Notes: a model not told the origin generated them from the letters alone. 62,603 nt of DNA from Gammaproteobacteria bacterium (GCA_030610155.1 JAUWSG010000002.1:1-62603); one strand, 5' to 3'; shown: positions 6,203 to 43,196, numbered from the stretch's first letter. Made by a program: numbers and translations.

Positions 6203-7471
6203 CTACATTGCTAATAGTTGCATGGCCTCTGCTATTTCTTCGTTAGCATCATGCAAAATCTGTATACTATTTTCCGCCGACAGCGACCCCAGACCCAGCT
6301 TCCGGTATGCAGGCACATCAGTCAGGCTTGGCAAGGTCCTGCCATCCAAAGGCGGAGTATCATCGCCCACTTTTTTACCCATAAAACTCAATAACTGCGC
6401 AACCAGCACCAGATCACAATAGTCTGCTTCAGTTCCAGGGTCGCGATCCCAGTCATCGGCTTCTTTTGCCACCGTTATAAAATCTTCCGGAAAATGCCAT
6501 TTCTCCAGAATCAGGCCGCCTACATCACCATGCAATTGACGAATTGTATCCCTAAGCTCATCATAATTATTGGCTATTTCGGGGTATCGCTCTGCATAAC
6601 TCAGAATCGGCAGCATACCCACGTCGTGTAACAAACCTAATAACATGGCGTGATCGGGATCAAAGCCCTTAACTCTTTTTGCCAATACATATGAAATAGC
6701 AGCCACTTCGGTACTGTGCTTCCACAGAGTCTGCATTTGTTTTTTAAGATGTATTAATTTGCTCTTGAATACATTACGTAAAGCAAAACCCATTACAAAA
6801 TTTTGTAATGTATTAATGCCGACCAGCTTAATGGCGCCCTCAACAGTCGCAACTTCCTTGTAAGAATGAAAAATAGCACTATTGGCTACTTTCATTAACA
6901 TTGCAGTCAATGCAGGCTCGGTTTGAACAGCGATTTTAAGCCTTTTTATATCTGCCTCTTCTTTTATCAATCTTCGAACCCTGACGATGATGTCCGGCAA
7001 TACCGGCACGCTCAACCTGTCTGCATCAAGGTCCTGAAAAATGTCCTGGAACAAGGGATTTTTAACGACTTCATTCGTCAAAAATATATTTTCAACATGC
7101 TCCCCTAATTCTTGTTGAAGCCCGGAAACATTATCCAATACCTGGTTGTCGATCCATATATATTTGACTTCGGTAAGTGCAGTGACCGTATAAACATGCG
7201 GATTTAAATGTGAGACTGATTTTTTCGCTTTTTCTGTTCCACCTGTCACCTCAAAACTGCGGCCATCTTTTGCTGTTAGCATGACCTCGCCTTTTAACAC
7301 ATACAAAGCTCTCGCATCAGAAGAACCAAGACTAACCAGTTCATCTCCAATATTGGCATGCTGAATTTCACCCTGGGCAGCCAAAATACTCAGCTCATCA
7401 TCAGTAAGATGACATAATGGCTTCAGGGTTTTTAATGTCGCGATATCTATATAGTCTGATGACGTTTCCAC
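6203..7471 (-). CDS. Cyclic-nucleotide-binding-domain / HDOD-domain signalling protein
   Basis: 422 aa. N-terminal cNMP-binding-like beta-roll region (…YVLKGEVMLTAKDGRSFEV…). C-terminal HDOD signature (…MLLGLLHDVGMLPIL…). Confidence 0.8.
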   Translation of the reverse strand: METSSDYIDIATLKTLKPLCHLTDDELSILAAQGEIQHANIGDELVSLGSSDARALYVLKGEVMLTAKDGRSFEVTGGTEKAKKSVSHLNPHVYTVTALTEVKYIWIDNQVLDNVSGLQQELGEHVENIFLTNEVVKNPLFQDIFQDLDADRLSVPVLPDIIVRVRRLIKEEADIKRLKIAVQTEPALTAMLMKVANSAIFHSYKEVATVEGAIKLVGINTLQNFVMGFALRNVFKSKLIHLKKQMQTLWKHSTEVAAISYVLAKRVKGFDPDHAMLLGLLHDVGMLPILSYAERYPEIANNYDELRDTIRQLHGDVGGLILEKWHFPEDFITVAKEADDWDRDPGTEADYCDLVLVAQLLSFMGKKVGDDTPPLDGRTLPSLTDVPAYRKLGLGSLSAENSIQILHDANEEIAEAMQLLAM

Positions 7472-15052: not shown

Positions 15053-15130
15053 CGTCTTCACTCCGTATATGATATGTTTACCGGACAGTCATGACTTAAA
15101 GCCAGATCAATAATGCCGTGACTGTTGCTG

Positions 15131-24075: not shown

Positions 24076-25263
24076 TTACAAAGCTCTACTGATGATAAAA
24101 CCACCCCAGATCGGGCTCCGCGAACCAGGGCCTGTTTTAATTTCAGAGGTTTGTCCTCGCAAAAAATAACTCATTCTCAATCCGCTATCCAATTCCTTTG
24201 TCACACCCATCCAGAGCTCACCAACAACATGGTTCAGCTCATCACTCTTGTACGTCACGACACTGTCCCTGAATTGCCCTTGAAGAAAAACGTTATATGC
24301 CCTCAAGTGCACACTCAATCCGGTCCAGAAATAAAATTCATTTTTTGCTTTCGTGCTTGTTTTTGCTAAAGGTGAACCCTTTTCAGCATAAGCCGCATTC
24401 TGTGGATTAAAACTCCACCAGGGCGTACGAATTCTGCCGAATCGACCACTAATGCTATAGGTATAATCCGTCAGATAACCAACATTCAGGTTACTCGCTG
24501 TTTTAATTTCATAATTTGAACTCTCATCAACATAATCTGCCCAATGAACAGACTGCTTTGAAACACTGTAACGAAATGTCAATTCACCGCCATCAGAAAT
24601 CTGATTACCCCAACCTTGCGCCTCGTTAGCATCAAATACTTTGTGTATTAAATTCTGAAACTCACCGGCAATATCCAGACCCAGAACACCGATACTTAAA
24701 GAAGTAATCAATGAAGAGCGATTCTTGTAATCTACATGCTGTCGTGTATTTGAAAGATAAAACAAACTAGCATAAGGTCGATCATCGAAAATCGGCTCAC
24801 TAATCGTTATATCATCGGGCGTAAATGTCGTTAATCCAAATTCAAAACTGTGTAACAAGCTGTCATATTTTTTTCCTAAACCAAATAAATTATTAATACC
24901 ACCCAATATAGGGTCAACCGATGCAATGTAATGCGCTGTTTTTGAACCAGACAAGGTAAATGCCAATCCACCGGTATAGTCACGGTCTCTGCCAGGAGAG
25001 GCAAACAAATCATTATCTATGTAAAATGCCCAGCTGGTTCGGTCCTTTTCCTGTTGCTGCTCATCAAGTGGTTCACGCTGAGGCCGTTTCTCGTCTTCAA
25101 TCAAAGCCGCGAGTAACAACTTTTCCTGCTGAACTTGTACACCCGACAATGGCTCCTCAACATGACTGGCTAACACATCCTGGTTAACTAAAAACATCAC
25201 AGCCGCAAGCAACGTCAATAACGCGCCTTTTACTGAGTTGTTTTTAATTGTGTTTACCAACAT
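24076..25263 (-). CDS. lpxR: LpxR-family (DUF2219) outer-membrane lipid A deacylase-like protein, copy 2
   Basis: 395 aa with a signal peptide. SWAFYIDNDLF...DRDYTGG. Colinear with copy 1 but has an extra acidic Q/E-rich N-terminal segment. Confidence 0.75.
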   Translation of the reverse strand: MLVNTIKNNSVKGALLTLLAAVMFLVNQDVLASHVEEPLSGVQVQQEKLLLAALIEDEKRPQREPLDEQQQEKDRTSWAFYIDNDLFASPGRDRDYTGGLAFTLSGSKTAHYIASVDPILGGINNLFGLGKKYDSLLHSFEFGLTTFTPDDITISEPIFDDRPYASLFYLSNTRQHVDYKNRSSLITSLSIGVLGLDIAGEFQNLIHKVFDANEAQGWGNQISDGGELTFRYSVSKQSVHWADYVDESSNYEIKTASNLNVGYLTDYTYSISGRFGRIRTPWWSFNPQNAAYAEKGSPLAKTSTKAKNEFYFWTGLSVHLRAYNVFLQGQFRDSVVTYKSDELNHVVGELWMGVTKELDSGLRMSYFLRGQTSEIKTGPGSRSPIWGGFIISRAL

Positions 25264-26290: not shown

Positions 26291-26839
26291 TTACGCCGCC
26301 AGGGTTGAAAACCGCTGACTCTCAATTGACCATTGATTCTTATCCGCAATCAGGATCAGACAGGAAGGCCCACTACCGGTACGCGTTCGCCCTGCTGCAC
26401 CGGGATTGATGACCCAGGGTGTGTGACTTTTATCTATAACCAGTTTATGAGTATGCCCGTAAACAATCACACGTGCATCGGAATGCGCTTCACGCAAAGA
26501 ATCATGTGAGGGCGAGTGCATGCCATGTTCATGCCCATGCTCTACTATCAATTTGCCGCCGGGTAAGTCCAGCTCTGCAATCGTGGGTAAACCGCCTGCA
26601 ATATGTGACTCACTTGCAGACCACATATGAGGATGATCATTATTTCCTGCGACCGCAATCACTTTCCCATGCCTGGGTTTTAATGAATCCAGGACCGAGG
26701 CACTGCTAATATCGCCCGCATGAACAACATAGTCACATGTCGCAACAATCCTGGCGATGCGTTCATCCAGATGGCCATGGGTATCGGAAATAATAGCAAC
26801 CCGTGCAAACCGGGCCGGTGGCGAAACAATTCCTGACAT
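26291..26839 (-). CDS. Metallophosphoesterase (YfcE / MJ0936 family)
   Basis: 182 aa with ISDTHG, HAGDI, GNND, HGHEH and GHTH motifs in canonical order. Confidence 0.85.
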   Translation of the reverse strand: MSGIVSPPARFARVAIISDTHGHLDERIARIVATCDYVVHAGDISSASVLDSLKPRHGKVIAVAGNNDHPHMWSASESHIAGGLPTIAELDLPGGKLIVEHGHEHGMHSPSHDSLREAHSDARVIVYGHTHKLVIDKSHTPWVINPGAAGRTRTGSGPSCLILIADKNQWSIESQRFSTLAA

Positions 26840-27029
26840 CTACAACTACTCCAAATATTTTTTATCTATCATCACAATAATAATTTAGTTCATCAATTAC
26901 CAGGTTCCAGGTCGTCAGCCTTACGCTTAAATCTTTTCCCTTTTAACTTTACCTTTTTCCCTGCTTCTTCCTAATCATCGATATATTTATCGACCACTTC
27001 ACCTTACTTCTGAGCTGAATGGGTGTTTT

Positions 27030-27066
27030 TTTCAAATAAAAAGCCCGGGACAGACTGTCCCGGGCT
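27030..27066 (-). terminator. Rho-independent terminator for the sat transcript
   Basis: gcccgggacag/ctgtcccgggc stem. On the minus strand it is followed by tttttatttg. Lies about 250 nt downstream of the sat stop. Confidence 0.8.
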
Positions 27067-27117
27067 AGTGTTTTGTTAAACCTAAGTAAAACTAAAGTTG
27101 GATCAAATAATTAAAAC

Positions 27118-27255
27118 TTATTTGAACAACTTGGACTTGTCGACAAGATCCATATGGCCACGTTTGAAGCAGGTCCAGGTATGGGTAGTCTTGTCATAGA
27201 CAGAGTTCACGAAGCACTCCCGGTTTTTCTTCTGCAACAGCCAACATGTTTGCAT
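27118..27255 (-). CDS. Possible 45-aa Cys/His-containing small protein between sat and its terminator
   Basis: My translation: MQTCWLLQKKNRECFVNSVYDKTTHTWTCFKRGHMDLVDKSKLFK. Below the ORF-track cutoff. No convincing SD and no family recognised. Confidence 0.2.
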   Translation of the reverse strand: MQTCWLLQKKNRECFVNSVYDKTTHTWTCFKRGHMDLVDKSKLFK

Positions 27256-27316
27256 TGGTGTTGTAGTAAGTTGCTACAGTCAGAGGGCAAGATATGTAAA
27301 ATTCGCTTGCTAAGTA

Positions 27317-28534
27317 CTATTTTGCAGAGTGACCGGATAATTTAACTTTCACGTTGTCCTCTGCAGACAAAGTTTCATAATATTTCCTGAGAATGGTCAG
27401 CACTTCGGGTCGACTGAAGTGGTCTGGCACATCTTCTCCTTCTGAGAGCATCTTACGAAGTTTAGTCCCGGATAACAATAATCGATCTGCCGCATCGTGT
27501 GGACAGGTCTTCATTGAGGACATACCCTCGCATTTATTACACCAAAAGGTCCAGTCTATTTTCAGCGGCTGGGTTTCCAGTGCGTCCGCGGGGATTTCAT
27601 CGAATATATCATGCGCATCAAATGGACCATAATAATCGCCCACACCGGCATGGTCACGGCCGACAATCAAATAAGCACAACCATAATTCTGCCTGAACAA
27701 GGCGTGTAACAGAGCCTCACGTGGACCGGCATAACGCATATCCAGAGGATAACCGGCCTGTACCACGGTGTTATCTACAAAATAATTCTCAATCAGGGTG
27801 CCAATGGCCTCTTCACGCACATCAGCAGGAATATCGCCGGGTTTTAATTTACCCAATAATGAATGCACCAATACCCCATCACAGATCTCGACTGCAATTT
27901 TAGCCAGGTATTCATGCGAGCGATGCATCGGGTTACGCGTCTGGAAAGCCGCAACCTTGACCCAGTCTTTCGCGTCAAACAGTTCGCGCGTCTGTGCCGG
28001 AGTCAAATAAGTGTTTTTGTACTCAGTTGGGAATTCACCTTCTGATAGCACCTTGACCGGCCCTGCCAGGTTGACATCACCCTGATCCATAACCATTTTA
28101 ACGCCCGGGTGTTCTATATCCGTGGTTTTGTATACCTGCATGCATTCATGCGCTTTATCAATAGCGTACTTTTCGGTCAGTGTCATCGTGGCCAATATTT
28201 CATCACGGTCCGGGTCATACAACGCGATATCATCGCCTTCTTTCACGCCATCCGCAGATGCCGAATCAGTTGAGAGGGTAATCGGGATAGGCCAGAACAA
28301 ACCACTGGCCATTTTCATACCATCACAGACACCCTGCCAGTCAGCATGAGTCATAAAACCATCAAGCGGGGTAAAGCCACCAATACCCATCATGATCAGG
28401 TCTCCCGCTTCACGGGAGCTGATGTTAATTTTTTTCAGTGATGCTGCGCGTTTTTTTTCTGCTGCCAGCTCATTACCTTTCAACAACAATGGCTTAAGAT
28501 CAGCGCTGCCATGAGGATTAACCAACTTGGACAT
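27317..28534 (-). CDS. sat: Sulfate adenylyltransferase (ATP sulfurylase, homo-oligomeric Sat type)
   Basis: 405 aa. [11 protein letters not shown] and VGRDHAG motifs, with a PUA-like N-terminal domain. Confidence 0.92.
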
Positions 28535-28858: not shown

Positions 28859-29596
28859 TTAAGGTAGTCTACCGGCGGCCACCATACGATTGAAAAGAAT
28901 ATTAGGGGAGACCCAGACAATCAGATCATCAATCACGCCCTGAGGGTTAGTCATTGGGTCTGCATTATCAGTGTAGACATGGTCAACAAACACACTATTG
29001 GTATTCGTATTCTCGATCTCATTATTTGACGCCGCATTTAAACCATTTTTGCCAACGGACAATATGATCGCCGGGATATTAGTGGCCACATTTCTGCCCC
29101 CGGCCTCATTAACAATCGTCATATCGCCTACTGAACATAATTCAAAGGATACCCCTGGCGTCGCGGTACCACAGCCTGTGCCATCTATCCCATCAGCGAA
29201 ACTCCCCGTCACTCGATATCGGTAGCGGTTGCCCCAGCTGTCCAGTTCGACCGTCCCCAGCGTGACCCAGGGAAAGTTACCCTCTACGGAGACACAAACA
29301 CCCGTCCCCGGGTTTCGGTCCTCCTGACCATCATTGGCCGGACCCTGTCCACCGCCGTCGGTTTTGTCCGGGCAGGGCAGGCGGCCATTTACCAGCGCAA
29401 AGCCAATAATCGCCTGCTTTAGTTCTTCCAGTGATTTTTCAGTGTCATTTCGTCGTGTATTTTCAATTTGCGTGGACAAGGGCATCAATAAACCGCCCAG
29501 TAACAAGCCAACGATGACCAGCACAATCGCTATCTCAACTAATGTGAATCCTTTGGCATGTTTTTTCATATCAGTCCGTGCTCTCCTGGAATGCAT
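28859..29596 (-). CDS. Type IV pilin / pseudopilin-like protein with prepilin cleavage-methylation motif
   Basis: ...KKHAKG|FTLVEIAIVLVIVGLLLGGLL is a class III signal with Glu+5. A likelier start is the internal ATG at 29569 (leader MKKHAKG). The mature part is unusually large at about 220 aa. Confidence 0.85.
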   Translation of the reverse strand: MHSRRARTDMKKHAKGFTLVEIAIVLVIVGLLLGGLLMPLSTQIENTRRNDTEKSLEELKQAIIGFALVNGRLPCPDKTDGGGQGPANDGQEDRNPGTGVCVSVEGNFPWVTLGTVELDSWGNRYRYRVTGSFADGIDGTGCGTATPGVSFELCSVGDMTIVNEAGGRNVATNIPAIILSVGKNGLNAASNNEIENTNTNSVFVDHVYTDNADPMTNPQGVIDDLIVWVSPNILFNRMVAAGRLP

Positions 29597-29653
29597 ATAT
29601 TTCTATCCCGCTATGCGCTCTGAATCTCAAAATTTTAAACTCAATATAATCGA

Positions 29654-31171
29654 CTACCTGCTCATCGCGCCCGTTGCCATACCGGTACCACTGTTACCCA
29701 TACCACCACCCATGCCCATCCCGCTACCGCCAACCGAGGTCACAGGTAATACCACATCATTAAACGCATTGCTTGCCGGACCACTGATAAAGGCATTATC
29801 AGCTGTCTGCGCATTGGCACCTTCCAGATAATTATTGATATTTGCTTTTTCTGCATTTGTATCACGTGATTGGCCTGCCAGTTTGCGACCACTGATAAAA
29901 ATCACAGCGGCTTCATTAGCACCGTCCAACGTCAATCTCGCAGCCGGGAGTGTTGCGGTTCCATTCGGCGCAAAATCCGCATCAACACCCACAAAAACCA
30001 TTTCTTTCCATGCAGGCCACCACCACCATTCCCAATTCAAATCCGCTACGACTGTGTCATTAAAACAGCGAATATTTGATTGTGGAAGAGGCGGGCTGGG
30101 CTCATCTATCCAGGAAGTTGTCATGGCCGGATCAGAAACCGCCGTATCACTGAGTCCATCCAGATTATTAATGTTTCCCGCACCGATCTCATTGGATACA
30201 CGACCATAAAGCTGGCCATTAGCATCATTGTAGCCCAGGGGGTTTGTCGCACTGGCCCAGGGGAATTTTCCATTATTTGTCGCCTGTGACTGATAGGCCT
30301 GCAGACAATTGACAACCCGATTGGCCACCCATTCATCCATTCGACGATAAACCATAGAAAAATCAGCCGGTGTAATGGCAAGCAGGGCATCGTTAAAAAC
30401 AATATTACCTTCAGCATCCCTGACTATCGCGGCATTAACAAAAACAGACGGTAAGCTTGCTGGCAAAGGATCACTGCCGGGACTGAGGCCCGCAGCAGCG
30501 ATATCGAAACCTGTCGCATTATTAATGTCCCCCAGGACTTCAAGATAATTCGCCGCATTATTACCTGTGTCACCCGGCGTCATACTGCCACATTCAGTTC
30601 TTGTCCCACGGGTAAAACTACGGTCTTGCGGCGCAAACAATTGACCCGCAGCGAAAACGATCGCAATGGCCTGCTTGTTCGGCGTAGCGCCAATAACCGT
30701 TGCGCCTGCCTGATTCTCAACTAATAACAACCCATCGGAATCACTGGTCAAGGCCAACTTGGGATTGTTTTTATAGGTGCCCGAGACGACATACCACAAA
30801 CATTCCCCGGCACCATCCCGCAGCGGCGGCAAATCCAGCGTCCGCCAGGGTAAACGCCCGATCACACTCTCATTAGCCGAACCACAAGCACCATCAGCGG
30901 TGCCATCACCATCCAGGTCTGGACAAGGTAAATACCCCTGGGGCTGGCCAGCATGTTGATCAGCATAAGTTAATGCATGGCCGATCAAAGCGTCCTTTGC
31001 TCGGGCAAGGGCATCAACCGTTTGCTGGTTTTGTAAAAGCTTGCCGGAATTTTTATTCAAGCTGGTGAGCAACAGGTAGGCCCCGCCTAAAACAATAATG
31101 GTAAGCAGTATCAGTAATGCGGCGCCTGTCTGATTTGACTTTGCTTGAAATGTTGGCGCGCACATATTCAT
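29654..31171 (-). CDS. Large pilin-like / minor-pilin-like protein (505 aa) lacking Glu+5, with a Gly/Met-rich C-terminal tail
   Basis: N-terminal hydrophobic helix QTGAALLILLTIIVLGGAYLL. Shares the ...LIG.AL...LPCPD...G.(L/F)PW.TL... module with the adjacent pilin. Ends in GGSGMGMGGGMGNSGTGMATGAMSR. Confidence 0.7.
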   Translation of the reverse strand: MNMCAPTFQAKSNQTGAALLILLTIIVLGGAYLLLTSLNKNSGKLLQNQQTVDALARAKDALIGHALTYADQHAGQPQGYLPCPDLDGDGTADGACGSANESVIGRLPWRTLDLPPLRDGAGECLWYVVSGTYKNNPKLALTSDSDGLLLVENQAGATVIGATPNKQAIAIVFAAGQLFAPQDRSFTRGTRTECGSMTPGDTGNNAANYLEVLGDINNATGFDIAAAGLSPGSDPLPASLPSVFVNAAIVRDAEGNIVFNDALLAITPADFSMVYRRMDEWVANRVVNCLQAYQSQATNNGKFPWASATNPLGYNDANGQLYGRVSNEIGAGNINNLDGLSDTAVSDPAMTTSWIDEPSPPLPQSNIRCFNDTVVADLNWEWWWWPAWKEMVFVGVDADFAPNGTATLPAARLTLDGANEAAVIFISGRKLAGQSRDTNAEKANINNYLEGANAQTADNAFISGPASNAFNDVVLPVTSVGGSGMGMGGGMGNSGTGMATGAMSR

Positions 31172-31180
31172 CCGTCGAAC

Positions 31181-31705
31181 TTATTTTTTTATTTTATAAC
31201 TATCACTGATTTTACCTGTGACAGGATCAAGAATTTGACCGGGCTTGAGCGCGACCCTTTTATTCAGGCTGGAGAGCGTAATAGTGACTGAATCACTTTT
31301 AATGTTCCGGCTAACTATCTCAACACCCGCTTCAGGAAAATTTGTTTTAAAATTACTCTTACCATTTACCCATACTGTATTTTTACCGTCTCCACGCACC
31401 ACAACACCATTTATCTCAAGACCTTTTTTTGCAACAGCTACACTTTTTGTCGGTTTTTTTCCTGCCCGTTTATGATGAGGATGATGGCGCATTTTATCGA
31501 GCACTGCGCGCTGCTCAGGCGTTGTAAAAAATCGCCCAAATGAATCTGCATGCGCCGTATTTACCAGGACTGCCGCTACACTGCATATAAACATCACAAT
31601 GATTGAGCGGCCTGTTTTCCTTACCAGTTTCATTATGACTGCTCTATATCCATACTTCCTCTGCAATAAATAGTCTATCGTCATAATAATAACGCCTGAC
31701 TTCAA
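31181..31705 (-). CDS. Secreted/periplasmic pilus-assembly protein (MshK/PilP-like position)
   Basis: 174 aa. An internal Met25 gives a good signal peptide (MKLVRKTGRSIIVMFICSVAAVLVNTAHA). The ORF-track TTG start overlaps the upstream stop as TTGA. Assignment is by position only. Confidence 0.55.
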   Translation of the reverse strand: MKSGVIIMTIDYLLQRKYGYRAVIMKLVRKTGRSIIVMFICSVAAVLVNTAHADSFGRFFTTPEQRAVLDKMRHHPHHKRAGKKPTKSVAVAKKGLEINGVVVRGDGKNTVWVNGKSNFKTNFPEAGVEIVSRNIKSDSVTITLSSLNKRVALKPGQILDPVTGKISDSYKIKK

Positions 31706-32316
31706 CCACTACCTTTAGACTGCAGGGTAAACCAGTTTAAGGTGCATTCTGCTACAATATTTGTCGTTCCCGCATCATTTGCAATAATCTTGTGCTGGCG
31801 CTGCATCTTGCATCGTTTAATATCGTAAACACCTTCAGCAAGTCGATTCAGCTCAGTAAAAATATCCAGCAGGTCGTGCTCATGCAAGAGTTTCATATGC
31901 AAAACCATCTCACTTGAATTTATCTGAAACAGACTTGCATTCACTGTATATGCCGGACGATAAGGCTGTGATGCCTTGATATTGTATTCAATCGTGATGA
32001 CTTTCTTTTTCTCTGCAATAGCGCCCAGCGTTTCCACCCAATTCAATCTGTTTTCTTCTCCAATGAAACCTTTCTTTTCCAGCCTCTGATAATCGGACAA
32101 ATACATATCCACCAGATGTAATTGATTAACTGCATCCTGGTGCTTTGCCTTCATCTTTAAAAGCCCGGCCTGGCTGTCATGATTCAGATGGCGTTTATTG
32201 TCGACATAAATATAACTGATCAACGTCAGACCAAGGCTCAACACCATCACAACGGACAACACAATTGTTGCGCGCTTTAAATAGGCCCAGTCTATTTTAT
32301 TAATAAGCATAATCAA
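31702..32316 (-). CDS. Bitopic pilus-assembly protein (MshJ/PilO-like position)
   Basis: 204 aa with an N-terminal TM then a coiled-coil-like periplasmic region. TTGA-type overlap with the upstream gene. Assignment is by topology and position. Confidence 0.55.
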   Translation of the reverse strand: MIMLINKIDWAYLKRATIVLSVVMVLSLGLTLISYIYVDNKRHLNHDSQAGLLKMKAKHQDAVNQLHLVDMYLSDYQRLEKKGFIGEENRLNWVETLGAIAEKKKVITIEYNIKASQPYRPAYTVNASLFQINSSEMVLHMKLLHEHDLLDIFTELNRLAEGVYDIKRCKMQRQHKIIANDAGTTNIVAECTLNWFTLQSKGSG

Positions 32317-33938
32317 CCCTGACCATGCCTGACTTCAAGCACAACCCTGAGAACAAAGACGGCATCCCTGGCATCCGCTTTTATTCCGGTCTGACCTGTC
32401 AAGCTCGAATTGGAGCTGATATCCAGCGGCAACCTTATCGCCTGAACATCAATAATATCTGCATGACCTTTTAATCTGGATGCCAGATTATTTACGGCAT
32501 CAAAAGCTTTACGATAGTTACCAGAAAATTTCTCGAAACTACCATTCACCAAAGCAACCTGGTAAAGCTTTTCAGTATTGTCGGATTGTAATTTTCCTGC
32601 GGCTTTAATCGCGATATTCTGTATTTTATTTTTGTATCTGCCATCAACAGAGGCGTCTGGGTCACTCGTCACAATCCACTCAATACTATCCACTTTTAAA
32701 CTTGCGTCATCAAAGCCCATACTGATCGCCATTAATAATGGCTGAGGCAATGCCTTATGATTTTTTAGTGCTTTTTCAATTTCCACACTTTCTTTCAAAC
32801 CACCAGGCTTCACAGATGTCTCAGGTATTTTTGCAAAAATTTTATCGTATTCCGACTGGACAAGTAATGCAGACTTATGCGCCTCCTGACTATGTGACTC
32901 CAGCAAACCCCCCTCGATAAAATTCATACTACTCCATACCAACGACGCCATAAAAAAAACAACGCTTGCAGCATACATAGCCAAACGTTTCTGGCGGGAT
33001 TTCCTGTATTTTGTGTCGCCCGCGCCTGTATAGCTTAACGCCGGGGTCTTCGCCATTAATAAACGGGAATATATCCGATCACAAAACCTTGCGCTCTCCT
33101 GCTGATTTATACCAAGATCAACAAACAGGTCCTCAATATTAAAAACATGCAGCCTGGCCAGATCTGTATCCCTGTTCTTACCTGGAGAGTTACCTGGAGA
33201 GTTACCTGGAAAGTTACCTGAGATAATTTCGATCGTTTCACTGTCACTAATAACACATACATCCAGCGCTTTATCAAAAGGCAGCAGCTGTAACCTGGCC
33301 AGGTAACGTCGTGCCTTTTCAATTTCACTAAAAACCAACTCTGCGCTTAGTTCCTCGTTTAATTCTGCAATAGGCACCAGACGACTCAACATTAATTGTT
33401 TGCCCTGAAAATAAGATTGCCTTACGCCGCTATTTTTCTGGCGCGTCATAAGCAGAACATTTTCAAAATTTACTTCCAGCTGCTGTAATAAATCACAACC
33501 GAGCACAGACGGCGTATAAATCCCAACAATCGGGACCTTATTTTCCAGCAGACACTCAACCCAGGGATTGACCACATCCGGGTTTGTCAGCGCGGTAAAG
33601 AGGATCCTGTCGTCACGTCTTCCCGCTTCCTCACGCCCCTGAATTAATGAGCCTTTGTAAGGTGTTGCGCGGTAATACTGGTCAAGCCTGCGGTCAATCA
33701 GCGCCTTTCTTTCCCCGCCAAACAGATGAGGAACTGTTTCATTTCTGAACTCCTCCTCAACAACATCCACAATCAGATATGTCAGCATTTCATCCGAGCC
33801 ACTCAATAATGATGAAAAACTTTTCAGTCCATTCTGATCGAGCCGAAATTCCTCAGGCCCATGCAAACAAGCATCTTTGAACAAATAAACATTTGCCTCT
33901 GATGCTGTTATATAGACGACCCTTTTTGCCAACATCAT
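32313..33938 (-). CDS. Pilus-assembly protein, PilM/PilN-fusion-like (MshI-like topology)
   Basis: 541 aa. Cytoplasmic N-terminal half, a single central TM (LAMYAASVVFFMASLVWSSMNFI) and a periplasmic C-terminal half. Contains an in-frame GNSP tandem repeat. 4-nt overlaps on both sides. Confidence 0.6.
   Translation of the reverse strand: MMLAKRVVYITASEANVYLFKDACLHGPEEFRLDQNGLKSFSSLLSGSDEMLTYLIVDVVEEEFRNETVPHLFGGERKALIDRRLDQYYRATPYKGSLIQGREEAGRRDDRILFTALTNPDVVNPWVECLLENKVPIVGIYTPSVLGCDLLQQLEVNFENVLLMTRQKNSGVRQSYFQGKQLMLSRLVPIAELNEELSAELVFSEIEKARRYLARLQLLPFDKALDVCVISDSETIEIISGNFPGNSPGNSPGKNRDTDLARLHVFNIEDLFVDLGINQQESARFCDRIYSRLLMAKTPALSYTGAGDTKYRKSRQKRLAMYAASVVFFMASLVWSSMNFIEGGLLESHSQEAHKSALLVQSEYDKIFAKIPETSVKPGGLKESVEIEKALKNHKALPQPLLMAISMGFDDASLKVDSIEWIVTSDPDASVDGRYKNKIQNIAIKAAGKLQSDNTEKLYQVALVNGSFEKFSGNYRKAFDAVNNLASRLKGHADIIDVQAIRLPLDISSNSSLTGQTGIKADARDAVFVLRVVLEVRHGQG
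33178..33222. repeat. In-frame 12-bp tandem repeat (ttacctggagag x3.7), encodes GNFP-GNSP-GNSP
   Basis: ttacctggagag ttacctggagag ttacctggaaag ttacctgag, read directly in the sequence. Confidence 0.9.
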
Positions 33939-35140
33939 CTTGCCACCTTAACAATCACATCATAAAGCGGCCAAAAGACTGATAACATCACCCAACCAAT
34001 ATTAACCGCTAAAAATATTGTCAACACGGGCCCCAATATTGACTGCATTTTTTCTATTGAACCTTTAACTTCGCGATCATAAAAATAACTCACATTATCA
34101 AGCGCCGTATCAAGCTCACCTGTCGTCTCTCCGACCTTGATCATTCGTCGAACCAACGGCGGGAACAATGAAATACTGTCTATACTGTCGCTAATACTAT
34201 TTCCATCAGCTATTTTTTTCTGCATCTCTCTGAGAGCTGTCGACATGACCATATTACCGGTTATATCTTCATTGATTCTGAGACTATTCAAAACCGTTAC
34301 GCCTGATGAATACAGCAGCGCAAAATAATTAGCAAACCTGGCGAGAATAATTTTCTTAAATATGGGCCCAATCACCCAGACCCTGATTTTAAAATCATCG
34401 AGCTTGTATCTAACGCGCGCATCCCTGCGGGCCATATATTTAATCAACAGAATGGTCACTACTGGCACAATAAATAACAGGTACCAGTGACTCGTCAAAA
34501 AGTCAGATACCGAGATAAGAATCCTGGTATGTAATGGCAACTCCTGCCCCATATTTGTTATAAAAGTAGACAGACGCGGCACAAGATATGCCATAACAAA
34601 AAATATCGATCCAAATACGAATAAACCAACAAATGCTGGATAAAAAATTGCCTGTTTAGTCTGCGCCGCAATCTCATCCTGCCATTTAAGTGACTCAGTA
34701 ATGTTTTTTAATACTTCCGCCAGCTTGCCGCTCTCTTCACCCGCTCGTATCAAGCTAACAAATACCGTGTCAAATATTTTTGGAAATTGCTCCAGGGATT
34801 CAGAAAAGGTTTTACCGCCTTCTATAGAGGCAATAAGCGCAGAAGCAATCACCTTAAGGTCAGCATTACTGACACTGCCTCTCAAGTCTGCCAAACCATC
34901 AAGCAACGGCACACCGGAACGCACAAGCTGCTCAAGGTGAAAGGTAAATGTGATCAACTCCTGTCGTAATAATTTTTTCCTGCCAACAGACAAGGCACTT
35001 TGTTTTATTTCTGTGAAATTAATCAAATCAAGCCCCATTTTATTGAGGCGTAATTCGAGATCAGCGACATTAGAGGCGTCTAAACGTCCCCTTGTCTTTT
35101 TTCCAGCATCATCTATTGCTTTATATTTGAATACGGCCAT
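33935..35140 (-). CDS. mshG: Type IV pilus / T2SS platform protein (GspF/PilC family, MshG-like)
   Basis: 401 aa with duplicated T2SSF domains and three TM regions. Begins AVFKYKAIDDAGKKTRGRLDA..., typical of the family. Confidence 0.9.
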   Translation of the reverse strand: MAVFKYKAIDDAGKKTRGRLDASNVADLELRLNKMGLDLINFTEIKQSALSVGRKKLLRQELITFTFHLEQLVRSGVPLLDGLADLRGSVSNADLKVIASALIASIEGGKTFSESLEQFPKIFDTVFVSLIRAGEESGKLAEVLKNITESLKWQDEIAAQTKQAIFYPAFVGLFVFGSIFFVMAYLVPRLSTFITNMGQELPLHTRILISVSDFLTSHWYLLFIVPVVTILLIKYMARRDARVRYKLDDFKIRVWVIGPIFKKIILARFANYFALLYSSGVTVLNSLRINEDITGNMVMSTALREMQKKIADGNSISDSIDSISLFPPLVRRMIKVGETTGELDTALDNVSYFYDREVKGSIEKMQSILGPVLTIFLAVNIGWVMLSVFWPLYDVIVKVAR

Positions 35141-35143
35141 CGT

Positions 35144-36841
35144 CTAATGCACCCTGTGCGTCAGATCAATAAGGCGAGAAACTTCATCGAGACTGGTTTC
35201 TCCTTCCAATACACGGCGAACACCATCTTCAGATATAGGCGTAAAACCCCGGGACATTGCTGCACTTTCCAGTTCATGGCGTGAGACTTTTTTAGCGATA
35301 AGCTCATCCATGTCCCGATCCAGGCGCAAGACTTCCATAAGCGCAAGCCTTCCCTTATAACCTTGATTGTCACAACTATCACAACCGCAGGCCTTATAGA
35401 TCAACACATCATCTTCAACCGCCATTAGTTGCTTTTCAAAAGTAGATGCAGAGTATGCCTCTTTACAATCCGGACACAATTTACGGACCAGGCGCTGGGC
35501 GACAACCCCGATGATATTCCCTGCCATCACATCCGCCTTAATACCAATATCCAGCAAACGGGGTACCGCACCCAATGCTGAATTAGTATGAAGTGTCGAA
35601 TAAACCTGGTGGCCCGTCATTGCGGCGCGCATTGCCATCACTGCCGTATCTTCATCGCGTATTTCACCGATCAGGATAATATCAGGGTCCTGACGCATTA
35701 TAGATCGAATACCATTAACAAAATCCATTTTGACAGCTTCATTAACTGAAGATTGGCGAATCATTTGCATCGGATATTCGACCGGATCTTCCAATGTCAT
35801 AATATTCACCGATTCATCATTCACATAATTGAGCATTGAATATAACGTTGTTGTCTTACCGCTGCCCGTAGGACCCGTCACGAGAATAATACCTTCCGGT
35901 CTGGCCATCAGTAATTTCAGAAGCGACAGGTTGCCCTCAGTCAAACCCAGCCCCTCTAATGGGACTATGCCTTTCTGGCGATCAAGAATACGTAATACGA
36001 TGTTTTCACCATGACTGGTAGGCTGTGATGCAACACGAAAATCCACAAGTCGTCCAAATAAAGTACGGGAAATTCTGCCATCTTGCGGAGCACGTTTTTC
36101 TGCGATATTCATTCCTGAAATCACTTTTAAACGCACAGAAATGCCTGACCAGTAGTTCTGATGCAAAGCTCTTACCTGCCGTAACACACCGTCAATTCGA
36201 TAACGAATACGCAGAAACCCTTGCTCAGGTTCAAAATGAATATCTGATGCGCCTTTTTTTACCGCGTCTACCAATAATGCATCTACCAGACGCACCAGAG
36301 GTTGGCTATATTCATCTGTTTGCGCCTCCAGGCTCTGATAATCTATTTCCCCTGTGTCTATTTCGTTTATAATGCCATCGACCGTTAATTCATAACCATA
36401 AAATTGATCAATTGCGCCTTCAATGTCCGCTTCAGCAGCCAGCAAGGATTCAATTTCCACGCCGCCGCCTATCATTGCGCTTATCTGGTCCAGCGCAACA
36501 ATATTAAATGTATCCGACATGGCCACGGTCAAAACATTGGCTTGCTTGTCATAGGACATTGGTAACACCCGGTATCGACGGGCGACTTCCCTGGGAATCA
36601 AGCTGATAGCATCCACATCAACAACTGTCTTCGCCAGATCAACACTTTCCTGCCCAAGTGATTCACCCAGGGTATCCCGGATGATGGCTTCAGAAACGAA
36701 ACCCAGCTCGACCAGAATATTTCCGAGCGGAATGTTTTGCTTTTCTTGTTCTATTAACGCAATTCGTAGTTGATCCTGGTTGATTACACCTTTCTCAATC
36801 AACACTTCACCTAACATACGACGTGGCGGGTCAGTAATCAT
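35144..36841 (-). CDS. mshE: Type IV pilus / T2SS assembly ATPase (GspE/PilB family) with N-terminal MshEN domain
   Basis: 565 aa. Walker A GPTGSGKTT, Asp box, tetracysteine CPDC...CDSC. The N-terminus carries two MshEN-type 24-residue motifs. Confidence 0.92.
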   Translation of the reverse strand: MITDPPRRMLGEVLIEKGVINQDQLRIALIEQEKQNIPLGNILVELGFVSEAIIRDTLGESLGQESVDLAKTVVDVDAISLIPREVARRYRVLPMSYDKQANVLTVAMSDTFNIVALDQISAMIGGGVEIESLLAAEADIEGAIDQFYGYELTVDGIINEIDTGEIDYQSLEAQTDEYSQPLVRLVDALLVDAVKKGASDIHFEPEQGFLRIRYRIDGVLRQVRALHQNYWSGISVRLKVISGMNIAEKRAPQDGRISRTLFGRLVDFRVASQPTSHGENIVLRILDRQKGIVPLEGLGLTEGNLSLLKLLMARPEGIILVTGPTGSGKTTTLYSMLNYVNDESVNIMTLEDPVEYPMQMIRQSSVNEAVKMDFVNGIRSIMRQDPDIILIGEIRDEDTAVMAMRAAMTGHQVYSTLHTNSALGAVPRLLDIGIKADVMAGNIIGVVAQRLVRKLCPDCKEAYSASTFEKQLMAVEDDVLIYKACGCDSCDNQGYKGRLALMEVLRLDRDMDELIAKKVSRHELESAAMSRGFTPISEDGVRRVLEGETSLDEVSRLIDLTHRVH

Positions 36842-37977
36842 CCTGCGGATACCTCCTGCAGCACGTTAATTCTTTGTATAACATCGTTGACTTTAAATGT
36901 GACAGCCTGTCTTTTAACCAGCTGCAGCGCAGCACGATAGTATTTAAGCGCCACCTCCCTTTGTTCAAGCTGGTCCAGACTCACCGCCAGGTTATAGGCA
37001 AGATCAGCATTTCGGCTGTCGGAACTATACGCCCTGAAAAAGGCCTCCTGGGCCTCAGCCCAACGCTGCTGTGACGCATACAAACTGCCTAGCGTGAATA
37101 ATAAATACGGCGAGCCCGGGTTAAGATCCAGCAGTAATTTTACTTGTGTTTCACTTCTGCCAGGATCAACGTTAGTTTGAATATTTAACAATCCGGACAT
37201 CGCCACACTGTCCTGCGGATTATTATCAAGTATTGCCAGATAGGTATCACGTGCCTTTTCATACTGTACATTTCTGACTGAAATTGCCGCCAGACCCAAC
37301 ATCGCATCACGGTTATTTTTTTCCTGCTGTAATACCTTACTGTAAACAGAAATGGCTTCATTATCATGGCCCAACTGATACGCTGCGTATGCCTGTAATA
37401 ACAGCTGGTAAACCGTGTCCGGTGCTGACTGATGCTCTATCTTGATTGAGGTAGAATTAAAGCCAGATATATCAGGGGTTTTCTGCGGCAACTTGGCTCT
37501 TGTCGTCGCCTTTATTGTTGATGTTATTTTCTTCTCAACCGCCACCTGTTTTTTCTCTGGACTTGCCATCTGGTCTTGTTGCTCAACACCTACCCGGGGC
37601 ACAGTCATATCTTTTAGTGATAATTGCTTTTGTTGTGCGACAGGAGAAACAACCGCAAACATATCGATCGGTAGCGAATTCAATATGGATTGATAATAGG
37701 CATAACCGGCGACAAGAAAGAGAAAAAACACGCACGAAGCAATTGTAATAAAATATTTTATATGTTGTGGCAACGTGTTTTTTGATATTTTCGCAACAAA
37801 CACATTTTTTTCTGACTTATTTGACCCTGCTTCTCTCGTCTCTTCGAACAAGCACGACGATGCGCCCTGATCAAGGCTCGAAAGTAATTCCAGCGACATA
37901 TCAGCCTGACCGGTAGATGCAAGCATATGCGGCTTTGCTCTTTCGGCCTTTTTAAGCGCATCCATCAACATACTCAT
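36838..37977 (-). CDS. mshN: TPR-repeat pilus biogenesis protein (MshN-like)
   Basis: 379 aa. N-terminal region, one TM, then several TPR units (...AISVYSKVLQQEKNNRDAMLGLA...). Confidence 0.7.
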   Translation of the reverse strand: MSMLMDALKKAERAKPHMLASTGQADMSLELLSSLDQGASSCLFEETREAGSNKSEKNVFVAKISKNTLPQHIKYFITIASCVFFLFLVAGYAYYQSILNSLPIDMFAVVSPVAQQKQLSLKDMTVPRVGVEQQDQMASPEKKQVAVEKKITSTIKATTRAKLPQKTPDISGFNSTSIKIEHQSAPDTVYQLLLQAYAAYQLGHDNEAISVYSKVLQQEKNNRDAMLGLAAISVRNVQYEKARDTYLAILDNNPQDSVAMSGLLNIQTNVDPGRSETQVKLLLDLNPGSPYLLFTLGSLYASQQRWAEAQEAFFRAYSSDSRNADLAYNLAVSLDQLEQREVALKYYRAALQLVKRQAVTFKVNDVIQRINVLQEVSAG

Positions 37978-37988
37978 ACTGATACCTT

Positions 37989-39683
37989 CTAATTTATATC
38001 GTTGCCAACAACATTTTGCTGCCGCACAAGACCAATAGTTGTGGGCTCTTCCAACTCAGGCAAATATTGCCTGAACCTCTTGAAATCACCTTCAAGACTA
38101 CCGTTATGAATAACCGATGGACGTAGAAAAATCACCAGTTCAGTTTTAATGTATTCTTCATCACGGGAAGTAAACAGATTTCCGACAACAGGCAAGTCCG
38201 AGAAAAATGGCACAGCTTGCGTGCCTTCCTTTTTAAAATTCTGCATCAAACCACCCAGGACAACTGTTTGACCGCTATTAACTTGCAACAAGGATTCCAT
38301 CTCGCGCACCTGGATTTCCGGAATCAGATTATCAAAATCTGCGCCAGCCAGGCGTGGTGCGGGGTCAGCTTTATATCCGGTAATTCGCGATATGGTCGGA
38401 CGAATATTCATGGTAACGATATCATTCCCGGTAATTTGCGGTATAACATTCATCACCAGTCCTACCGGGATGGTATGAATTTCACTGGTAAAGGATTCAC
38501 GAGAGGGCGACGTCGTGGTTGCATCAACAAAGTCTCTTTGAATGGTAAAATAAACAGTTTCATCAACAACTTTCAACAATGCGGGTTGATTATTAATCGC
38601 CATGATCTTGGGACTGGACAACACCTTTACATCACCAAACGTCTCCAGTAATTTTACCGCGGCAAAAATATTTTTATCGGCATTGTTATAGGTAACGCTA
38701 AATATCGGCGACAAATCAAAATTACCATCTGTCATCAGAGACCTGAATGACGGCCCATTTTTACCATGACCATCATTATCAGAAAGCCTTTGCCAGTCTA
38801 CGCCCGCCTGATAATGGTCATTAAGCCTCACCTCAACAATAGTGACCTCAATCAGGACCTGGCGGTGCACATTTGCAAGCACTTTATCCAGAAAAGTTTG
38901 TATTCTTGCATGTTCATGCTCTGTGGCCAGCACACTAACAATACCGCCCATCGGGTTAACCACAACCCGATTATCACTTTCCTTGTTTTGCTTCGCTTCT
39001 TTGAGCAACATTTGAATATTTTCAGATATTGTTTTCCAGAAGTTATTTTCCGATTCATTTACAAGCGTGGTTTTTGAATTGTTCCCTGCTTGATTTCCAC
39101 TGCCTGAACCACTGCTCTCGATACTTCCACCGGTAGTTGATATTTCTGCAGCAACACTGACTTCACTCTTGCTGGAACGCACCATGTTCACATAATCAAC
39201 CTCATAGGTACGCACATAGGGAATATCCGGCGATATCACCAGGTTCGGACCATCCATCCTGAATCGCAGATCAACCTGATCTGCGAGCCGATCCAATATC
39301 TGTGGCAATGTCTGGTTAAGCGCATTAAGTGTCGCTTTACCTTTTATGCCTGGATGAATATCAACGTTTAACTTCGCATCACGCGCCAAAGCAAATAACA
39401 AATCCTTTACGGGCACATCATTAACCACCACGGTATAGGTTTCCTGTTTCGGGACTGGTTTGGGCGAAGGCAAAAAAGGTGTTTTTGCAATTACCTGTGG
39501 AATTTCACCATTAGAATTATTATCTGTCTTTAAATGGCCGGCTGACATTCTGGGTGGATTTGTTGCACTGCAAGCAAAAAGAAACAAAATAAAAAATACA
39601 AACAGGCAGAACGTTCCAACACCAATACTGGAACCAAAAGGACGACTTATATTTCTCTTTAACAAAATGTTATTCATAGTCAA
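37989..39683 (-). CDS. mshL: Lipoprotein secretin (GspD/PilQ superfamily, MshL-like)
   Basis: 564 aa. Lipobox LFLFAC|S. C-terminal secretin domain (...VVLGGLMQN...VPFFSDLPVVGNLF...). Confidence 0.9.
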   Translation of the reverse strand: MTMNNILLKRNISRPFGSSIGVGTFCLFVFFILFLFACSATNPPRMSAGHLKTDNNSNGEIPQVIAKTPFLPSPKPVPKQETYTVVVNDVPVKDLLFALARDAKLNVDIHPGIKGKATLNALNQTLPQILDRLADQVDLRFRMDGPNLVISPDIPYVRTYEVDYVNMVRSSKSEVSVAAEISTTGGSIESSGSGSGNQAGNNSKTTLVNESENNFWKTISENIQMLLKEAKQNKESDNRVVVNPMGGIVSVLATEHEHARIQTFLDKVLANVHRQVLIEVTIVEVRLNDHYQAGVDWQRLSDNDGHGKNGPSFRSLMTDGNFDLSPIFSVTYNNADKNIFAAVKLLETFGDVKVLSSPKIMAINNQPALLKVVDETVYFTIQRDFVDATTTSPSRESFTSEIHTIPVGLVMNVIPQITGNDIVTMNIRPTISRITGYKADPAPRLAGADFDNLIPEIQVREMESLLQVNSGQTVVLGGLMQNFKKEGTQAVPFFSDLPVVGNLFTSRDEEYIKTELVIFLRPSVIHNGSLEGDFKRFRQYLPELEEPTTIGLVRQQNVVGNDIN

Positions 39684-41693: not shown

Positions 41694-43196
41694 TTGCCGG
41701 CTTTTAGTAAATTCTTATTCCCTTTGATGCTTTTATGGTGCGTGGCGCAAGCGGCGCAGGCGGCCTATATCGAGCGTACCATCACTGTTGACGGTGATAT
41801 GAGTGATTGGTATGACCCCGGCGGTATTTATATCCCCCCTGGAGATATCACCAATAATCCCGGGCAGTTCAGCACTGATGCCGAGGACGGATCAGGCAAT
41901 GATCTTGATGAACCCATCGCCAATACCGGCAGAGATTTACGCAAGTTTTCATTTACCTGGGATAACACCTATGTCTATTTTTATGTTGAGCGCTGGGCTT
42001 CCAGCACCAACGTGACAGATTGGTGGTTTTATATCGATTCCAACGCGGATGGCTTGCTGCAAACCGACGAAAAGGTCTTGCGTATTAAATGGCAAGGGGC
42101 GAACCGCAATACTGTCGCGGAATTATGGGATTATGTTGAGAGTACAGCTGGCGGTGACCCGTTAACAAATGCAGGAGTGGGTGATGGTTATACCATGCCT
42201 GGCGACATAGCCAATGATACGCAGATTTATTCAACTGTGGGCGGCGCGACGACAGGCACGGAAATGGAGTCACGCGTCACCTGGGTAAGCCTGGGGTTTA
42301 CCGGGCCAGTAAATCTGGGATTTCATATTTCCTCATCAAATGGCGCCAATCTGCCAAATAATATACTTGATAATATGGATGGTCCTGCAGGCGGGCAATT
42401 GTTCCCCAAGGACCTGCAGGTTTCAAAGACGGCCTCAGTCGTCACCGCACTCGGCAATCAACCCTTCAGCTATACCGTGACGGTCTATAATGCGGCGATT
42501 ATTGCTTTTACCAATGCAGTCATTTCTGACGTTTTACCCGCGCAAGTAACCTATGTGAGCCATACTGCCGAAACAGGCACGACGTTTGATGATTCAGATA
42601 GCAACAGCATCCCCGATCAATGGAACATTCCGACTATCCCGGCGAACAGCACCTACACGTTAACTATTAATGTTAAGGCGGGTATCGTTCCCGTCACCAT
42701 GACCGCGACGAACACGGCCACACTAACAGCATCAGATCAAACTGATGAAAATGCCACAAATGATAGCGCCAGTGTTGACGTTGATATTGAGCCAGTGCCG
42801 GTATTAACCATGGTGAAATACGCCTCTTCACCAACAGCGAATCCCGGGGCAAATATTGGTTACACCATCCAGATAACAAATACCGGGGGTGTTGCGGCTT
42901 TTGCGGTGGTTGTTACAGACGCATTAAGCCCGTTTTCGATGTTGAGAATCGATACCTATGGAGCATCTACACCCTTTCAGTTAACAGAAGGGGTACCCGT
43001 ATCAGGCGTTACTCTTGGAACCATCACTTATTCAAATGACAACGGTACAACCTATACCTATACGCCCGTTTCCGGAAATGGCGGCGCACCGGCAGGTTAT
43101 GATGCCAACGTGACTAACTGGAATATCGATATGACGGGAACGATGAACCCGAACGGCGGAAAATTTGATGTCCAATATCAGGTACAGTTGCGTTAA
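41694..43196 (+). CDS. Secreted DUF11 (conserved repeat domain) protein, probable surface/adhesin-like
   Basis: 500 aa with a TTG start and a signal peptide (...CVAQAAQA). Two DUF11-like units (...KTASVVTALGNQPFSYTVTVYN...ISDVLPAQVTYVS... and ...VKYASSPTANPGANIGYTIQITNTG...VTDAL...). Confidence 0.7.
   Translation: MPAFSKFLFPLMLLWCVAQAAQAAYIERTITVDGDMSDWYDPGGIYIPPGDITNNPGQFSTDAEDGSGNDLDEPIANTGRDLRKFSFTWDNTYVYFYVERWASSTNVTDWWFYIDSNADGLLQTDEKVLRIKWQGANRNTVAELWDYVESTAGGDPLTNAGVGDGYTMPGDIANDTQIYSTVGGATTGTEMESRVTWVSLGFTGPVNLGFHISSSNGANLPNNILDNMDGPAGGQLFPKDLQVSKTASVVTALGNQPFSYTVTVYNAAIIAFTNAVISDVLPAQVTYVSHTAETGTTFDDSDSNSIPDQWNIPTIPANSTYTLTINVKAGIVPVTMTATNTATLTASDQTDENATNDSASVDVDIEPVPVLTMVKYASSPTANPGANIGYTIQITNTGGVAAFAVVVTDALSPFSMLRIDTYGASTPFQLTEGVPVSGVTLGTITYSNDNGTTYTYTPVSGNGGAPAGYDANVTNWNIDMTGTMNPNGGKFDVQYQVQLR

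Follow-up and report, generated by a model that had tools for sequence, protein, structure and literature searches.

What kind of machine is encoded by the nine-gene operon at positions 28859-39683 of a 62,603-nucleotide stretch of gammaproteobacterial DNA (GCA_030610155.1, JAUWSG010000002.1; the whole 62.6-kb stretch is called the window below)? The original prediction described it as a compact type IV filament operon resembling that of the mannose-sensitive haemagglutinin (MSHA) pilus, the proposed type IVe pilus (T4eP) of Vibrio and Aeromonas whose class is called MSH. Profile searches, structure models, trees and a survey of related loci show that the operon is real and conserved, a variant of the type IV filament superfamily that had not been named before. 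It probably encodes a complete, self-contained filament machine, one of a large clade that has no name and stands closest, among known systems, to MSHA. The predicted affinity to MSHA is borne out by the secretin, which passes the MshL equivalog cut-off, by the MshEN domain of the ATPase, by a tetratricopeptide repeat (TPR) gene at the position of mshN and by neighbour-joining (NJ) trees.

Organization of the operon

All nine open reading frames (ORFs) are intact and co-oriented on the minus strand, forming the compact operon that had been predicted, with the coordinates first assigned to them. In operon order, with lengths in amino acids (aa), they encode the following proteins.

37989-39683, minus strand: secretin, 564 aa, MshL type, probable lipoprotein
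36838-37977, minus strand: TPR protein, 379 aa, bitopic, at the MshN position of MSH loci
35144-36841, minus strand: extension ATPase of the GspE/PilB/MshE superfamily, 565 aa, with N-terminal MshEN
33935-35140, minus strand: inner-membrane platform protein of the GspF/PilC/MshG superfamily, 401 aa
32313-33938, minus strand: alignment-complex protein, 541 aa, PilM/GspL-like plus PilN-like by its structure model
31702-32316, minus strand: bitopic inner-membrane protein, 204 aa, putative PilO/GspM/MshJ analogue
31181-31705, minus strand: exported small beta-domain protein, 174 aa, putative analogue of MshK, PilP and the GspC homology region (HR)
29654-31171, minus strand: large Glu5-less pilin-like protein, 505 aa, putative tip or initiator subunit
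28859-29596, minus strand: canonical type IV prepilin, 245 aa, putative major filament subunit

Counted from the longest-ORF starts, the junctions in operon order are +11, -4, +3, -4, -4, -4, +9 and +57 nucleotides. The true start of the 174-aa ORF is probably M25, giving a protein of about 150 aa as in the relatives L081 and L082, and that of the 245-aa prepilin is probably M10, giving the leader MKKHAKG↓F (the arrow marks the processing site). The operon is flanked by housekeeping genes, dihydroorotate dehydrogenase upstream and ATP sulfurylase downstream. A tblastn search of the whole window gave no hit for a prepilin peptidase, a second T2SSE-family (GspE/PilT-type) ATPase or an MshM-like gene. 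The reported lack of a peptidase and a retraction ATPase in the locus is thus confirmed, and neither of them lies just outside the operon. A 15.3-kb public contig (L090; GCA_048633235.1, JAIWCO010000078.1) carries the same operon with 99-100% protein identity and therefore comes from essentially the same organism; the secretin annotated there (519 aa) starts 3' of the lipobox and would be without a signal peptide.

Conservation and spread of the gene family

The ORFs of 80 related loci were searched with the nine proteins of the window. The shared gene order is secretin, TPR protein, ATPase, platform protein, 541-aa, 204-aa and 174-aa proteins, large pilin and pilin, and all nine genes stand in this order at 32 of the 43 loci having enough flank; most of the 11 exceptions have no detectable large pilin. 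The arrangement is conserved far beyond chance. The layout, which had been called rearranged, does differ from that of Vibrio and Aeromonas MSHA, but it is not peculiar to this genome and is fixed in a large family. Relatives of the 541-aa protein are encoded in at least 412 species-representative genomes, and its family profile collects 3,312 clusters at 50% identity with E<=1e-3 and 1,547 with E<=1e-30; its many full-length relatives are all unnamed and without Pfam domains. Carriers are found among the Gammaproteobacteria (Ectothiorhodospiraceae, Thiohalobacter, Tenderia) and the Betaproteobacteria (Gallionellaceae, Sulfuricellaceae, Nitrosomonadales), homologues of the large pilin occur also in Thiomargarita, Thioploca ingrica, Halobeggiatoa and Methylomonas, and the family is common in sulfur-, iron- and methane-oxidising bacteria. 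In the complete genome of Thioploca ingrica (L091; AP014633.1, 2488085-2510109), the contiguous block holds the genes of the platform, 541-aa, 204-aa and 174-aa proteins, large pilin and pilin only, and the genes of the secretin, TPR protein and ATPase do not adjoin it, suggesting that the system can be spread over separate loci.

A literature search found no paper that names or describes this system. Such loci may have been classed as "generic" or MSH by Denise et al. 2019; the supplements of that study, whose Janthinobacterium and Leptothrix "MSH" entries are not mappable to this family, did not settle the matter.

In most relatives the operon has a further member. A co-oriented AAA_22 gene lies directly 5' of the secretin gene in 44 of the 52 relatives with enough upstream sequence (85%). 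Its product, a protein of 478 aa with a transmembrane (TM) segment at residues 279-296, has a GspA/ExeA-like topology and is MshM/ExeA-like. A sigma-54 response-regulator homologue is encoded at 34 related loci, usually 5' of the AAA_22 gene. The window has neither gene. L081 and L082 have the same AAA-less nine-gene form with the same two flanking genes, and their 541-aa protein is 47-50% identical to that of the window, suggesting that the AAA-less form is a stable form of a sub-lineage and not a product of decay. The description of the operon as minimal and without MshM therefore holds for the window, but the absence is lineage-specific. The best matches of the upstream AAA protein and regulator of the relatives are TIGR03015 (217 vs a cut-off of 324.5) and TIGR02915 (344 vs 503), which had suggested a link to PEP-CTERM systems; this idea was dropped because both scores are far below cut-off.

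Secretin, TPR protein, ATPase and platform protein

Family assignment relied on Pfam and NCBIfam profile models, with equivalog cut-offs where given. The secretin matches PF00263 at 1.8e-40 and the MshL equivalog model TIGR02519 at 260.2 bits, passing the cut-off of 250.2 bits, and it stays far under the cut-offs of the GspD (155 vs 351 bits), PilQ (112 vs 284 bits) and type IVb pilus (T4bP) secretin (88 vs 288 bits) models. Its identity is 26-31% to three MshL references and 19-24% to GspD, and the alignment with Aeromonas MshL is full-length (528 aa, 27% identity). A lipobox-like sequence is formed by L35-F36-A37-C38. The TPR protein matches multiple TPR Pfam families at residues 184-357 and has a TM segment near residues 75-97. 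Its gene is kept at the same position in related loci, and the comparison with Aeromonas MshN shows no specific resemblance (E 0.17). It may serve as an accessory of the secretin or of the alignment complex.

The ATPase matches T2SSE at 415 bits and remains below the GspE (509 vs 630) and PilB (502 vs 676) equivalog cut-offs; it is 35-39% identical to MshE, GspE and PilB alike. Identity within the family is 62-70%. The N-terminal domain matches MshEN (PF05157) at 62 bits and passes the cut-off of the cyclic diguanylate (c-di-GMP) motif domain model NF053729 (59 vs 38 bits). The MshEN motif consists of two 24-residue repeats joined by a 5-residue spacer (PMC5013675). Glycines 11, 18, 40 and 47 and Gln32 of the window ATPase are in register with the published motif. 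As deviations, Met replaces Arg9 in motif I, and motif II has Pro at position 38 and Ser at position 61. Many ATPases of the family keep Arg9. Control by c-di-GMP is plausible for the family and uncertain for the copy in the window. About 25 kb from the operon, the window genes at 2686-4011 and 6203-7471 code for a response-regulator-GGDEF diguanylate cyclase and for an HDOD-domain protein. Components of c-di-GMP signalling are thus present in the genome, which does not imply a linkage to the operon. The platform protein contains two T2SSF domains, scores 308 bits against the GspF model (cut-off 424) and is 25-29% identical to MshG, GspF and PilC alike; over all references the identity is 20-28%.

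The putative alignment complex

The families of the 541-aa, 204-aa and 174-aa proteins have no meaningful match in Pfam, NCBIfam or the PDB sequences, and the genes had at first been described as lacking any motif that could tie them to PilM, PilN, PilO or PilP. Structure prediction overturns this for the 541-aa protein. Its AlphaFold2 model, built with 52 homologues, has a predicted local distance difference test (pLDDT) score of 86.8 and consists of an actin-like domain (residues 1-300), a TM/coiled-coil helix (307-370) and a periplasmic alpha/beta domain (414-535). The best PDB structures found by Foldseek are P. aeruginosa PilM (5eox/5eou, E 2e-10), FtsA, and the cytoplasmic domains of GspL/EpsL (E 1e-7). 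Because the model is confident and matches PilM and GspL, the 541-aa protein is, as modelled, a fusion of a PilM-like and a PilN-like part with the architecture of GspL and MshI.

The other two proteins give weak co-linear matches. The 204-aa protein has a TM segment at about residues 16-38, a coiled coil and an alpha/beta domain with conserved C169 and C191. Its family aligns co-linearly by hhalign with a five-sequence MshJ/PilO/GspM set over 115 columns (E 0.004, probability 8%), and this weak profile match, the topology and the gene position together suggest an analogue of PilO, GspM and MshJ. The 174-aa family has a conserved LGRLFTTPxERAxLD motif. Its profile matches the HR region of E. 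coli GspC (hhalign E 0.003; hmmsearch E 4e-4 in a small database) and MshK sequences (hhalign E 0.0013, probability 19%), pointing to an MshK/PilP/GspC-HR analogue that would join the inner-membrane complex to the secretin. GspB was rejected as a model for the 174-aa protein, as was a PilN/PilO-type paralogy between the 204-aa family and the C-terminal half of the 541-aa family; in both cases hhalign aligned only the TM region. A homology search with Aeromonas MshJ returned only Aeromonas sequences of 76-99% identity, giving a profile too shallow to help.

Two pilin-like proteins

Only two pilin-like genes are present in the operon, as had been noted. The 245-aa protein has an N_methyl match (5.7e-7) and a weak GspG match (42 bits vs a cut-off of 89); its alignment with Comamonas GspG shows 31% identity across 119 aa. 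Its family has an invariant processing site, G↓F(T/S)LxE, with Gly at position -1, Phe at 1 and Glu at 5, following short leaders such as MKNKG↓F; the window copy reads KG↓FTLVE, with Glu5 present. The profile matches in the PDB cover the alpha1 helix only and are to solved pilins of every class, the match to MshA being limited to residues 7-30. BLAST comparison of the pilins with the ORFs of the Aeromonas pilin region likewise matched the N-terminal helix only, and no counterpart of MshA, B, C, D, O, P, Q or F was found. Between close relatives the 245-aa pilin is the most divergent of the nine proteins (42% identity vs 82-83% for the ATPase), as is expected for an exposed shaft subunit.

The family of the 505-aa protein has a conserved QxG↓ site before a hydrophobic helix (QTG↓AALLILL... 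in the window), without Phe1 and Glu5. It shares with the 245-aa family an AKxALIGYA...PGxLPCPD motif followed by an Asp/Gly-rich loop, and because of this common LPCPD-type motif the two pilins are regarded as paralogues. No Pfam or NCBIfam model recognises the 505-aa protein, its sequence is not similar to GspK of E. coli or Comamonas, and its profile has no sequence match in the PDB. Its AlphaFold2 model (pLDDT 89.4, predicted template modelling score 0.86) shows a 53-residue alpha1 helix (residues 15-67) followed by a globular head; Foldseek finds no fold match for it in the PDB (best E 4.8), and the modelled head is a candidate new adhesin fold. Its orthologues vary fivefold in length (207-1139 aa). 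The subunit that caps a filament tip lacks Glu5 (PMC10191384), and under this rule the 505-aa protein is likely to be the tip or initiator subunit, the 245-aa protein then being the probable major shaft subunit.

Some minor features of the two pilins are also seen. The Asp/Gly-rich loop after LPCPD resembles the calcium-binding DxDxDG motif in both proteins. The 505-aa protein has a conserved WWWW run at residues 382-385, six invariant Cys residues and, at residues 483-505, a disordered Gly/Met-rich C-terminal tail, GGSGMGMGGGMGNSGTGMATGAMSR.

Placement among the type IV filament classes

Bootstrapped NJ trees of the ATPase, platform protein and secretin were built with references from the Aeromonas MSHA locus (whose MshJ is named by NCBI), a Legionella MSHA-type locus, Acinetobacter PilB and PilC, the type II secretion system (T2SS) loci of E. 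coli, Ralstonia and Comamonas and a T2SS-like locus of Methylomonas. For each of the three proteins, 100% of the bootstrap replicates recover the family as monophyletic. The MSH references (Aeromonas, Legionella and the related locus L071) are also monophyletic at 100%, and the family lies outside their clade, as it does outside the T2SS and T4aP references. Bootstrap support for a split joining the family with MSH is 72% in the ATPase tree and 59% in the platform tree, and the ATPase tree gives 0% for a split joining it with T2SS. Since the trees are simple and thinly sampled, the placement of the family as a separate branch nearest MSH is provisional. In L071, a gammaproteobacterial metagenome-assembled genome, a canonical MSHA locus (L071:15453-21590) lies directly downstream of a copy of this system and encodes a PilN-like protein, MshJ (apparently frameshifted), MshK, MshL, MshM, MshN and MshE with 41-55% identity to the Aeromonas proteins. 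Because the two stand side by side there, MSHA and this system are distinct. Moreover, gene order and content differ from MSHA and five of the nine proteins fall in no named family, supporting the earlier suggestion that the operon represents a distinct subclass of type IV filament machinery.

The remaining pilus classes are more distant. Unlike in the type IVa pilus (T4aP), the PilB and PilQ equivalog cut-offs are missed, PilM and PilN are fused, and there is no second T2SSE-family ATPase in the window. T4bP such as the toxin-coregulated pilus (TCP) and CFA/III resemble the present system in having one major pilin and one large minor pilin of about 500 aa (TcpB/CofB) that starts assembly at the tip, and in having fewer alignment proteins than T4aP (PMC10191384). 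However, there is no sequence relationship to T4bP, whose secretin model gives one of the low scores cited above; in the present system the major pilin carries Phe1 after a short leader of T4a style, Glu5 is missing from the large pilin, and the machinery proteins group with MSH, T2SS and T4aP.

Six bacterial type IV filament classes are currently recognised (PMC6668835, PMC10191384), and the MshM AAA+ protein is mandatory in the MacSyFinder model of MSH (PMC6668835). Tentatively, and with a chance somewhat below even, the family may constitute a seventh class, sister to MSH, characterized by a fused PilM-PilN protein and a two-pilin filament with a Glu5-less tip of new fold. Such a class would be widespread in chemolithoautotrophic and methanotrophic Beta- and Gammaproteobacteria and could mediate attachment to mineral, sulfur or iron surfaces. 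Under the naming scheme of PMC10191384, a new class would take the next letter after T4eP.

A model of the machine and alternative explanations

The most likely product of the operon is predicted to be an extracellular, probably adhesive MSH-like pilus, possibly gated by c-di-GMP. An adhesive pilus is favoured because the secretin is of MSH type and is accompanied by a TPR protein and an MshEN-bearing ATPase, the head of the tip protein is variable, the shaft pilin evolves fast and no conserved candidate substrate gene lies nearby. In such a machine, the MshE-like ATPase would have two docking partners, the platform protein and the cytoplasmic PilM/GspL-like domain of the 541-aa protein, whose periplasmic domain would pair with the 204-aa PilO/GspM-like protein. 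The 174-aa MshK/GspC-HR-like protein would bridge this inner-membrane complex to the MshL-type lipo-secretin, and the TPR protein may aid assembly or alignment of the secretin. The Glu5-less 505-aa pilin would start assembly, cap the tip and display its large, lineage-variable head, and the canonical 245-aa pilin would polymerise into the shaft behind it. Both pilins would be processed by a prepilin peptidase encoded elsewhere, as for MSH.

Several points weigh against this picture. The hhalign probabilities behind the assignments of the 204-aa and 174-aa proteins are only 8-19%, the NJ trees hold only seven to nine reference sequences, the 245-aa pilin matches GspG better than any other family, and GspL has the same fused PilM-PilN architecture. 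Because of the GspG match and the GspL-type fusion, a secretion pseudopilus has to be considered, in which the 245-aa protein would form a short periplasmic pseudopilus that is capped by the 505-aa protein and pushes folded substrates through the secretin. This T2SS-like device is a serious rival even though it is rather unlikely. It would account for the GspG/T2SSG matches of the 245-aa protein in NCBIfam and Pfam and its weakly GspG-like N-terminus, for an actin-fold protein fused through a TM helix to a periplasmic domain in the manner of GspL (though PilM scores better), for the weak GspC-HR resemblance of the 174-aa protein, for a Glu5-less cap as in GspK and for the lack of a retraction ATPase in the window; some T2SS-associated ATPases also carry MshEN (PMC5013675). 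Yet no core protein reaches the GspD, GspE, GspF or GspG equivalog cut-off, the GspG similarity is limited to the alpha1 helix common to all pilins, and the ATPase never groups with T2SS in the bootstraps. The secretin is of MshL type and lacks the N-domain array of GspD, a TPR gene stands at the MshN position, and there is no GspH/I/J/K set, no PDZ-bearing GspC and no GspN. A cap protein unmatched in the PDB and ranging fivefold in size, together with the fastest-evolving shaft pilin, suits exposed structures better than a periplasmic piston, and a conserved candidate substrate gene would be missing from the neighbourhood.

The operon could also be a divergent member of the MSHA family with shuffled gene order and no class of its own, which is less probable still. 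The passed MshL equivalog, the MshEN ATPase, the TPR gene between secretin and ATPase, the MshM-like AAA_22 gene beside the secretin in most relatives, the single-locus layout without prepilin peptidase or PilT, as in MSH (PMC6668835), and the position of MSH as nearest neighbour in the ATPase and platform trees are all compatible with it. What argues otherwise is that the family lies outside the fully supported clade of Aeromonas, Legionella and L071 MSH, with an ATPase that is 35-38% identical to MshE, whereas two MshE references are 51% identical to each other. The alignment-complex genes follow the platform gene here, whereas MshI, I2, J and K lie upstream of mshL in MSHA; the Aeromonas MSH proteins match Pfam PilN and PilO, whereas the fused PilM-PilN protein and its partners do not. 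Two LPCPD-motif pilins take the place of MshB/A/C/D/O/P/Q, and MshF is lacking. The AAA+ protein of the relatives, with its TM segment and GspA/ExeA-like topology, has 478 aa against 295 aa for MshM, and both systems coexist in the one genome of L071. That the operon is a decaying, functionless remnant of an MSHA or T2SS locus is very improbable: an AAA+ gene, a sigma-54 regulator, extra pilins, a peptidase and a retraction ATPase are indeed missing from the window, but the nine ORFs are intact and tightly coupled, the AAA-less form is kept in L081 and L082, and the gene order is conserved throughout the family.

As a separate MSH-related system, the family looks like an additional deep branch beyond the six recognised classes, with thousands of sequence clusters. 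Five of the nine proteins lack a family model and are listed only as hypothetical; profile models for them would improve annotation in hundreds of genomes. The carriers include environmentally important iron oxidisers, sulfur oxidisers, relatives of nitrifiers and methanotrophs, to whose lifestyles surface attachment is central, with a molecular basis that is poorly understood. A two-pilin filament made of a canonical subunit and a Glu5-less cap would offer a simple natural system for studying filament initiation.

Neighbouring genes and other features

Nearby secreted DUF11 and beta-helix proteins had been put forward as conceivable cargo or adhesins. They occur in no neighbour cluster of the related loci and are not conserved neighbours, so this suggestion finds no support. 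In the window the DUF11-repeat gene (41694-43196) separates the dihydroorotate dehydrogenase gene from the SpoU methylase gene; the syntenic locus L081 has these two side by side and no DUF11 gene. The DUF11 gene seems to be a lineage-specific insertion that has nothing to do with the pilus operon. A scan for sigma-54 promoters gave more matches in shuffled sequence than in the window, where the upstream intergenic region had none, and sigma-70 and terminator scans of the window were uninformative.

Several genes adjoin the operon in some relatives and are absent from the window. An ABC-2-type transporter, consisting of an ABC_tran ATPase, an ABC2_membrane permease and an unannotated 251-aa protein, adjoins it in about 17-19 of the 80 related loci (for example L017:18575-20104, L028:20791-21546, and L092:1364-2080 and 14348-15118). 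An extra prepilin gene (about 238 aa) lies a few kb downstream at L074:16940-17656 and at 13 other loci. A convergent gene for a 566-aa protein with a faint histidine-kinase match is found at L032:16815-18515 (minus strand) and at 22 other loci, and its product may act together with the sigma-54 response regulator encoded upstream.

Downstream of the operon, the ATP sulfurylase gene of L081 and L082 is followed by aprB, aprA and a gene for a CxxCxxCC protein, and then by a metallophosphoesterase gene. The aprB, aprA and CxxCxxCC genes are missing at this place in L090 and in the window (26840-27316, between 26291-26839 and 27317-28534). Elsewhere in the window, two paralogues of LpxR, of the lipid A 3'-O-deacylase family, are encoded at 4545-5627 and 24076-25263.

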